Program-made: the position numbers and the translations under genes | Notes under the pieces: model-generated | Seen by the model: the letters and a program-made list of their open reading frames with translations, nothing else | The model's database searches: none | What the model was told of the DNA's origin: nothing | Source: a virus | Length of the DNA: 15,173 nucleotides | Strand: one strand, 5' to 3' | UHGV virus genome: UHGV-0105671 | Shown here: piece after piece, positions 10,135-10,724 of the stretch | How the letters are laid out: each line of letters starts with the position of its first letter | How positions within the stretch are numbered: position 1 is the first letter of the stretch

Positions 10135-10285
10135 GCCATAATAACTAAGTTAAGTTAGATTTTATATCAAAGATAACGAACAGGCAGGACGCCCACGAAG
10201 TAGCCGCCTGGGGCATATGACGTCCAGGATGATTCGTTGAGTCATGTTGTGCCACCAGGCACTCATGTTAAAGCAGGTGTATGAA

Positions 10286-10561
10286 ATGAAAGTCCAGATT
10301 TTAAACAATAACTGTGAAGTCGTTTGGTCATACGACATAGCCGCCCCTGTAGATCAGAGCGGCGATAGCTGGACCAATGGGAAACATCAGATTATGGCTG
10401 GAGTTGTGTTCTCTTTACGCCGTGCTTTGGAACAGGCTGAAGTATTTCCATCAGACCCTGAATGGAAATGGCCTTTTTCTATTTGTCCAAATTCGGAGAG
10501 CACATTTCAGAAAATTGGTCAGAAAGTCGCACTCGAAGAGCATCAGCCAACTGTTTCCTGA
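10286..10561 (+). CDS. Hypothetical small protein (91 aa) in the rex-equivalent slot; doubtful
   Basis: AGGTG Shine-Dalgarno 6 nt before ATG 10286. However a terminator-like hairpin lies inside the ORF and its 3' end overlaps the convergent minus-strand ORF by 83 nt. Confidence 0.3.
   Translation: MKVQILNNNCEVVWSYDIAAPVDQSGDSWTNGKHQIMAGVVFSLRRALEQAEVFPSDPEWKWPFSICPNSESTFQKIGQKVALEEHQPTVS
10443..10484 (+). terminator. Terminator-like hairpin between or inside the convergent small ORFs
   Basis: TATTTCCAT-(10-nt loop)-ATGGAAATG followed by GCCTTTTTCTATTT on the plus strand; lies just 3' of the minus-strand ORF stop. Confidence 0.4.
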
Positions 10562-10724
10562 TTTTTTCAGGTAACTCGTCGGCATCGCAGAAACAACAAC
10601 GCTCGATCATGTTGAAAGCCGATTCGTAGAACTGTTTCTGCTGAGTGTCGCTGAGACAGGAAAAGAGCGACGTTACGATGATTTTATTAATTGCATTATC
10701 AAGTTCTTTTTCATCAAAAGTCAT
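10479..10724 (-). CDS. Hypothetical small protein (81 aa), transcribed convergently toward cI
   Basis: AAGGAA Shine-Dalgarno 7 nt upstream of ATG 10724; protein-like composition (…LPEKIRKQLADALRVRLSDQF…). No family recognised. Confidence 0.45.
   Translation of the reverse strand: MTFDEKELDNAINKIIVTSLFSCLSDTQQKQFYESAFNMIERCCFCDADELPEKIRKQLADALRVRLSDQFSEMCSPNLDK

Follow-up and report, generated by a model that had tools for sequence, protein, structure and literature searches.

Two small open reading frames (ORFs) on opposite strands lie just behind the repressor gene of a lambdoid prophage, and they raise the question of whether both are genes and which of the known accessory slots of such phages they occupy. 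The window, by which we mean the whole stretch of DNA analysed (15,173 nucleotides of the virus genome UHGV-0105671), is an SfV-like lambdoid prophage of E. coli/Shigella. Across 1,086 bases around the pair, the Shigella phage SfV is 98.7% identical over 91% of the query, and many E. coli chromosomes match the same bases over their full length with identities of up to 99.6%. The gene order runs from cro (9155-9355, - strand) through an S24/HTH repressor and the small-ORF pair to yfdP, yfdQ and yfdR, and onward to xis/int. The repressor is a cI-type protein of 208 residues (9453..10079, + strand) with the Pfam domains PF01381 (HTH_3) and PF00717 (Peptidase_S24), and is named 'LexA family protein' by PGAP. 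The two ORFs, at 10244..10561 on the + strand and 10479..10724 on the - strand, are present as an earlier note on this DNA described them, each with its own Shine-Dalgarno sequence (SD; AGGTG at 10275-10279 for the + ORF, AAGGA at 10736-10732 for the - ORF) and with 3' ends that overlap by 83 bp (10479-10561). We also agree with that note that the pair holds an accessory-gene ('moron') position beside the immunity region; the antisense relation that it raised for the ORFs is inherent in the convergent layout. BLAST comparisons with Kati, SfII and SfIV place the boundaries of this two-gene accessory cassette at about 10239-10761. Of 5,426 complete E. coli genomes, 425 (about 8%) carry 80% or more of the length of the module, which is also present in the serotype-converting Shigella phage SfV.

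The position of the pair relative to the early-left promoter decides which slot it fills. An intrinsic terminator read from the sequence follows cI (10102..10134, + strand), with the stem CACCGAAC/GUUUGGUG followed by UUUUCUCUU. A hairpin with a T-run is also present 3' of the repressor gene in all five of the other aligned loci (SfV and four relatives; one of the five has the immunity type of the window), and the SfV record carries a terminator annotation at this site. Operator repeats of the form AACTAAGN5TTAG occur at 10107-10122 and 10143-10158, and a sigma-70-like promoter, TTGCCA (10133-10138) and TAGATT (10156-10161) spaced by 17 nt, overlaps the second of these downstream operator copies. 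The repeat occurs four times in the 15 kb window, twice between cro and cI and twice after the cI terminator, against a chance expectation of 0.17 and with none of 200 shuffles reaching four. A repeat-family search (D2) and a promoter scan concur on this site, which we propose as OL/pL (10107..10161, + strand). The arrangement recurs at loci with other repressors, where a terminator is followed, in the same place, by their own repeated operator-like sequences over a promoter; in the Yersinia locus, the operator GTAACTTTRGGTAC is common to the cro/repressor intergenic region and the post-repressor promoter.

Since the operators and promoter lie directly behind the cI terminator, the pair is downstream of pL/OL and not in the rex slot. 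The earlier note had placed it between the cI terminator and the early-left promoter region, in a position equivalent to rex, and neither part of that placement holds, because the operator and promoter cluster (10107-10161) is upstream of both ORFs. The layout of lambda agrees: its record reads cI-rexA-rexB-OL/pL-nutL-N, with N convergent with sieB and their 3' ends abutting. Lambda rexA-rexB is an accessory locus that adjoins the repressor gene, as here, but its genes stand between cI and OL/pL and share the cI transcript, whereas in the window OL/pL comes first and the pair follows. The rex genes are moreover in tandem while the two genes here are convergent, and searches of Pfam, PHROG, NCBIfam and PADLOC found no homology to either RexA or RexB. 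In ST64B, a related prophage whose flanks are about 80% identical to those of the window, features downstream of CI are up under inducing conditions by transcriptomics (PMC7067206).

Between pL and the cassette lies a conserved leader segment (10175..10238, + strand; core CAGGCAGGACGCCCACGAAGTAGCCGCC...), bounded by BLAST against Kati, SfII and SfIV and by alignment. This segment is common to phages with differing repressors and differing cargo, and in the Yersinia locus it follows the cassette instead of preceding it. No second copy of the nutR- or putR-like kind is found on the pR side within the window, and Rfam has no match for the segment. One stem in it covaries (CCUGG...CCAGG versus CCGG...CCGG). 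It is possible that the leader is a nut- or put-like signal or a processing signal.

On its other side, the cassette is flanked by an STnc100/PasD-like structured RNA with a DicF-like terminal/terminator hairpin (10812..11027, + strand), which aligns to Rfam RF02076 over the full model length at 42.4 bits (E=1.4e-7), a little below the gathering score of 47 bits. This RNA is a flank of the cassette and not part of the pair. PGAP annotates the same stretch as 'frameshifted hypothetical protein', and a long ORF (10844-11524) joins it in frame to yfdP. Between the RNA and the start of yfdP, a long inverted repeat (11025-11113) has 25-nt arms that are 84% complementary and 39 nt apart, and it is kept in two of the Klebsiella-like loci, L011 and L093. 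Elsewhere in the window, a C4 antisense RNA (8021-8108, - strand; RF01695, 68.4 bits) and isrK (8133-8209, - strand; RF01394, 60 bits) lie in tandem inside the mechanically called ORF 7421-8569 (382 aa). This arrangement points to an isrK-C4-antirepressor module of the P1 immI/Gifsy-1 type in the early-right operon, and therefore to an over-extended 5' end of that ORF.

Both small ORFs are real genes under purifying selection. In the segment that belongs to the + frame only (10286-10478), substitutions at codon positions one, two and three number 42/20/72 (minimum changes, chi2 p=2e-7), and the corresponding segment of the - frame (10562-10724) has 27/18/67 (p=9e-9). Nei-Gojobori pN/pS in these non-overlapping parts is 0.29 (+ frame) and 0.26 (- frame), with zero stops, while the remaining frames give values of 0.4-2.0 and contain stops. 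The caution in the earlier note that only one ORF may be real is thus rejected by the third-position excess of each exclusive segment in its own frame, together with a pN/pS below 0.3 in each.

The two genes are also inherited together. Five clades, whose DNA in the module has about 65-70% identity to the window, all preserve a span of exactly 439 nt that runs from the + start codon to the - start codon and is free of indels. Protein searches recover homologues of each protein down to about 60% identity and then at about 35-45%, and both ORFs are intact and convergent in all the diverged loci examined, namely the Klebsiella-like L003, L007, L011 and L093, the Yersinia locus L099, the Salmonella locus L102, and the more distant L108 and L109. 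The pair is co-inherited across Escherichia/Shigella, Klebsiella-like, Salmonella and Yersinia prophages, and distant homologues match the same two PHROG families, 3195 and 3311. The module is always found just 3' of a repressor gene, whichever the repressor type, and a near-identical cassette stands behind several different types. Among the IMG/VR matches listed, 13 of 13 element-linked - genes (the element is described below) have a + partner with the identical 83-nt overlap. We saw no intact solo copy of either gene; the sole lone - gene is truncated and lies at a deletion junction. The homology search and the examination of reading-frame conservation proposed earlier thus show both frames kept in diverged relatives, and the families they match are without functional annotation.

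The overlap itself (10479..10561, both strands, 83 bp), which encodes the C-terminal tails of both proteins, evolves differently from the exclusive segments. Its changes by codon position are 18/29/18 (p=0.18), with no dominant frame, and in both proteins conservation is lowest here (22-48% identity in the + tail and 45-55% in the - tail). The overlap is therefore a real geometry that is not strongly dual-constrained. The earlier note had further described a terminator-like hairpin here, which proves to be a weak, non-conserved stem of 5 bp and not a terminator. A consensus scan of 10400-10700 found no terminator on either strand, and the sole local stem, at the + stop codon, pairs CCUGA (10557-10561) with UCAGG (10567-10571) and has no U tract. 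Folding z-scores around the + stop codon are -1.9 and -1.8, the stem is missing from relatives, and the alignment consensus energy over 120 nt is just -7.5 kcal/mol. The idea of a conserved RNA structure in the overlap was likewise considered and rejected, none being found on either strand across six diverged sequences. A terminator between the two genes is absent.

The + gene (10286..10561, + strand) encodes 91 residues and corresponds to SfV orf33, PGAP WP_021563905 and phrog_3195, which it matches over its full length (E=8e-70). At its longest the ORF spans 10244..10561 (105 aa), but its true start is at 10286 (MKVQIL), where every homologue and PGAP begin, and the sequence upstream of this position lacks in-frame conservation. 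The SD (AGGTG) lies 6 nt 5' of this ATG, and the gene is the first ORF behind pL. Its product is hydrophilic and acidic (pI 4.95, net charge -4.3; N-terminus MKVQILNNNCEVVW), and its AlphaFold2 (AF2) model is of low confidence (pLDDT 63). Its homologues, followed down to about 35-45% identity, are always directly behind a repressor gene. In every clade, the + frame continues beyond the - stop without interruption, reaching up to 122 aa in relatives; this extension shows the substitution pattern of the - frame and is therefore not selected as + coding sequence. For annotation, both ORFs should be called, with the + start at 10286, and the 122-aa + ORFs in relatives should be regarded as over-extended. 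Separately, some relatives (L108, 3501-4079, and IMG/VR partners) have a + protein with an N-terminal extension of about 85 aa (MEFKDLP...) belonging to phrog_9419, 1363 and 2151; elsewhere this extension is a separate small N-slot protein that is convergent with other cargos.

The - gene (10479..10724, - strand) encodes 81 residues and lies in reverse within the pL operon, with its SD (AAGGA) 7 nt 5' of the ATG at 10724. It matches phrog_3311 over its full length (E=1e-55) and has homologues in Klebsiella, Salmonella and Yersinia. The SfV authors and PGAP, in the record examined, annotate the + ORF only, and other records call the - ORF. Its product is acidic (pI 4.56; 15 acidic and 10 basic residues), with a GRAVY of -0.40 and a longest hydrophobic stretch of about 10 aa at most. 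AF2 places three helices at residues 5-22, 26-46 and 53-75, with a pLDDT of 82.6 reached only in the best of five models, and the - protein is accordingly predicted, with fair confidence, to be a soluble three-helix protein. About 120 complete E. coli genomes match just the N-terminal two-thirds of the - gene. In the single locus examined of this kind, a decayed prophage of E. coli RIVM_C039205 (L112, 2915-3202), a deletion junction joins the - gene to a truncated tail gene, and PGAP calls the hybrid a 95-aa hypothetical protein.

Further evidence for the identity of the slot comes from a conserved 31-nt element upstream of the - gene (GCCTGTCTTTTCACCACTTCAGGCTCGGTGG; 10762..10792, - strand), which begins 68 nt before the - ATG and is found 5' of - gene homologues in all clades. 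The degenerate search pattern built for this element matches lambda (NC_001416, 34397-34427, + strand) with zero mismatches, 85 nt before the sieB ATG. The element is also found 5' of unrelated reverse genes, in Kati, SfII and SfIV and before a second reverse gene in L102. In IMG/VR, at least 122 copies occur in at least 120 loci, and at least 88 copies are followed by a same-strand, SD-preceded ORF, these cargos falling into at least 32 unrelated protein clusters. Among the IMG/VR matches listed, most small cargos have their start codon 65-72 nt from the beginning of the element, and the commonest cargo is the SieB family (PF14163, E about 1e-12), with the - gene family next. Other cargos behind the element commonly overlap their convergent neighbours by 8-63 nt. 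Within the SieB-cargo clusters of IMG/VR, one SieB cargo occurs with several different forward partners, so that the N slot and the sieB slot are separable in principle. These forward partners include ORFs that we take to be lambda N (arginine-rich, MDAQTRRRERRA...) and P22 gp24.

The lambda layout and the shared upstream element together place the + gene, on comparison of gene order and sequence, in the N slot and the - gene in the sieB slot, that is, in the positions of the corresponding lambda genes. The mention of sieB as a comparator in the earlier note was apt in this respect.

In phages that share the flanks of the window, the slot carries other contents. Kati (L105, 875-1487) has another convergent, overlapping +/- ORF pair of 68 aa and 144 aa, and the second reverse gene of the Salmonella prophage L102 (2257-2739) encodes 160 aa behind its own, second element copy. 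In SfIV (L107, 1831-2265), the flanks are as in the window and a different, unannotated cargo fills the slot. No annotation was found for the same-slot cargo of Kati and SfII or for the Salmonella 160-aa protein.

The element (GCCTGYYTTTNNNCCACNTCAGGCNNRGTGG) contains two interleaved inverted repeats, GCCUG/CAGGC and CCAC/GUGG, in a pseudoknot-like topology, with a single compensatory change (GCCGG/CCGGC) in Yersinia. Possible roles for the element are those of a promoter/operator, of a 5'-UTR structure, or of a signal that works in the pL-sense RNA. A sigma-70 promoter within it (-35 TTTTCA, extended -10 TGgTATCCT) was considered and dropped as the sole reading. The candidate -10 is not retained in the Kati/SfIV copies or in the second L102 copy, and such a promoter would leave the SD-pairing arm of the adjacent hairpin out of the mRNA. 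This hairpin, found by folding (CCUUUUA...UAAAAGG; 10733..10758, - strand), contains the - gene SD in its 3' arm. Minimum-free-energy folds give an SD-covering hairpin of differing sequence in six loci (CCUUC/GAAGG, CCUUCU/AGAAGG, CUUGGU/ACCAAG), with individual folding z-scores that are not significant.

Family and structure searches reveal no relatives with a known role. For both proteins, Pfam, PADLOC and NCBIfam gave nothing above noise, and a profile search against PDB sequences gave nothing. The best Foldseek match of the - model against PDB and BFVD has an E of about 1. Taken over Pfam, PADLOC, NCBIfam, PHROG and PDB, neither protein resembles a defence, exclusion, toxin or antitoxin family. 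Two scans of genome contigs found no relatives, tblastn against a phage collection returned near-identical copies only, and nothing relevant on orf33 was found in the literature. The entries phrog_3195 and phrog_3311 are without functional annotation, and PHROG is silent on their pairing and overlap.

Comparison with known systems is therefore one of arrangement. Lambda N/sieB resembles the locus in order and orientation, with operators and pL, a leader, the first early-left ORF and a convergent reverse gene, although the lambda 3' ends abut while those here overlap by 83 bp. The - gene shares with sieB its reverse orientation in the pL operon, its convergence with the first early-left gene and its place behind the same 31-nt element, to which lambda fits without mismatch. 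Its product is distinct: SieB proteins have about 160-190 aa, a PF14163 domain and a hydrophobic membrane-spanning N-terminal region, whereas the - protein has 81 aa, is soluble and acidic, lacks such a region and has no PF14163 match at E<=1. Similarly, the + gene shares with N its position as the first gene after pL and the leader, and position only; its product is acidic, with no Pfam hit, and lacks the basic, arginine-rich N-terminus of N-type proteins. In lambda and P22, the reverse gene sieB is necessarily transcribed in antisense by pL, as the - gene here would be. SieB is reportedly expressed in lysogens. Alongside lambda N/sieB, the closest counterpart to the arrangement of the pair is P22 gene 24 with sieB-esc and the sas antisense RNA, and in this phage sas controls the reverse gene in the slot (PMC12197685, PMC7067206).

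Other antisense and paired systems differ more. Type II toxin-antitoxin systems are co-directional operons of known folds, whereas the genes here are convergent and have no PADLOC, Pfam or structural match. Type I systems pair a hydrophobic peptide with a non-coding antisense RNA, whereas both partners here are hydrophilic proteins under purifying selection. In lambda OOP RNA and cII, convergent transcripts overlap at the 3' end of the early gene, which gives scope for duplex degradation. OOP is, however, a 77-nt non-coding RNA, whereas the antisense partner here is a protein-coding gene under purifying selection. The antisense overlap of OOP and cII is mentioned in PMC7067206.

These observations indicate that the locus is a real, conserved and uncharacterised convergent pair, best filed as a new cargo of the lambdoid N/sieB slot. 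Going further, we suggest, with a probability of about one half, that the - gene is a lysogen-expressed accessory gene of a new family that would be controlled in antisense by the same pL transcription that makes its co-inherited partner. In the lysogen, cI bound at OL would keep the + gene silent, and the - gene would be expressed from its own sieB-type control region, with an mRNA whose 5' end probably lies at the element or just before it and which carries the hairpin over its SD. Upon induction or infection, pL would fire and the + protein would be its first product. Because there is no terminator between the genes, pL transcription would cross the whole - gene in antisense. Transcriptional interference and the pairing of sense with antisense RNA would thereby reduce - expression, as sas does for P22 sieB. 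Speculatively, and by analogy with SieB, the commonest cargo of the slot, the - protein may be a lysogen-expressed accessory factor that serves defence or the exclusion of superinfecting phages, in which case the + protein would be its early-lytic partner or antagonist.

The alternative that survives best, and that we regard as possible though somewhat unlikely, is that these are two independent small genes in a crowded slot, with overlap and co-inheritance arising from packing and linkage and no coupling between them. Both proteins are least constrained in the overlap, which shows no dual-coding constraint, and overlaps of 8-63 nt are common among other element cargos, so that the overlap may be a by-product of tight packing. 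Co-inheritance could result from physical overlap alone, and the separability of the slots, as judged from SieB cargos with several forward partners, is consistent with such a reading. It fits less well with a pair that is kept, at a fixed 439 nt and free of indels, in five clades, that persists in L108 and L109 and behind many repressor types, and that yields no intact solo copy of either gene.

A more specific version of the suggested antisense control, which we hold to be doubtful, is a lysogeny/lytic toggle in which the - protein would be a soluble, lysogen-expressed three-helix effector of anti-phage exclusion or abortive infection, pL transcription its antisense switch-off on induction and the + protein its neutraliser. 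The element and its SD-covering hairpin would, on this view, be an expression platform common to a hotspot of at least 32 unrelated cargo families of prophages. A toxin-antitoxin-like or abortive-infection pair, in which the - protein is harmful and the + protein or the antisense pL transcript is the antidote, is in our judgement quite improbable. The strict co-inheritance and the convergent antisense layout speak for such a pair, the commonest cargo of the slot is SieB, an abortive-type exclusion protein, and P22 sieB/esc/sas provides a precedent. Both proteins, however, are small, acidic and soluble, without enzymatic or membrane signature and without PADLOC or Pfam match, and frameshifted copies of either gene exist in genomes, which argues against an addiction-type toxicity.

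We consider it very improbable that the + protein is an N-like antiterminator in function, though not a homologue of N, and acts on the leader RNA (10175-10238) to let pL transcription pass the terminator of the STnc100-like RNA. The gene does lie in the N position, as the first ORF past pL and the conserved leader, and the STnc100-like RNA, upstream of yfdP, finishes in a hairpin that resembles a terminator and has a U tract. Against this, the acidic + protein (pI 4.95) has no arginine-rich motif, Kati, SfII and SfIV lack the + gene despite having the same leader and the same downstream flank, and the leader stands behind the cassette in Yersinia. Finally, the notion that only one ORF is a gene and the other its antisense shadow is hardly credible given the own-frame codon-position signal and low pN/pS of each exclusive segment, even though antisense frames may stay open by chance, as the + frame does unselected to 122 aa in relatives, and although the SfV authors and PGAP annotate the + ORF alone in the record examined.

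Returning to the reading of a lysogen-expressed gene under antisense control by pL, its placement in the N/sieB slot provides a testable model in which lysogens express the - gene, the + gene is switched on together with pL, and the two are coupled in antisense. Through the shared element, the - gene is linked to a group of cargos in reverse orientation, the best known of which is an exclusion protein. Should the pair turn out to be an exclusion/antidote system, prophage-encoded defence would gain a new protein family, and further cargos could be mined with the element; should the toggle prove true, the element would be a handle for finding new lysogen-expressed defence genes.
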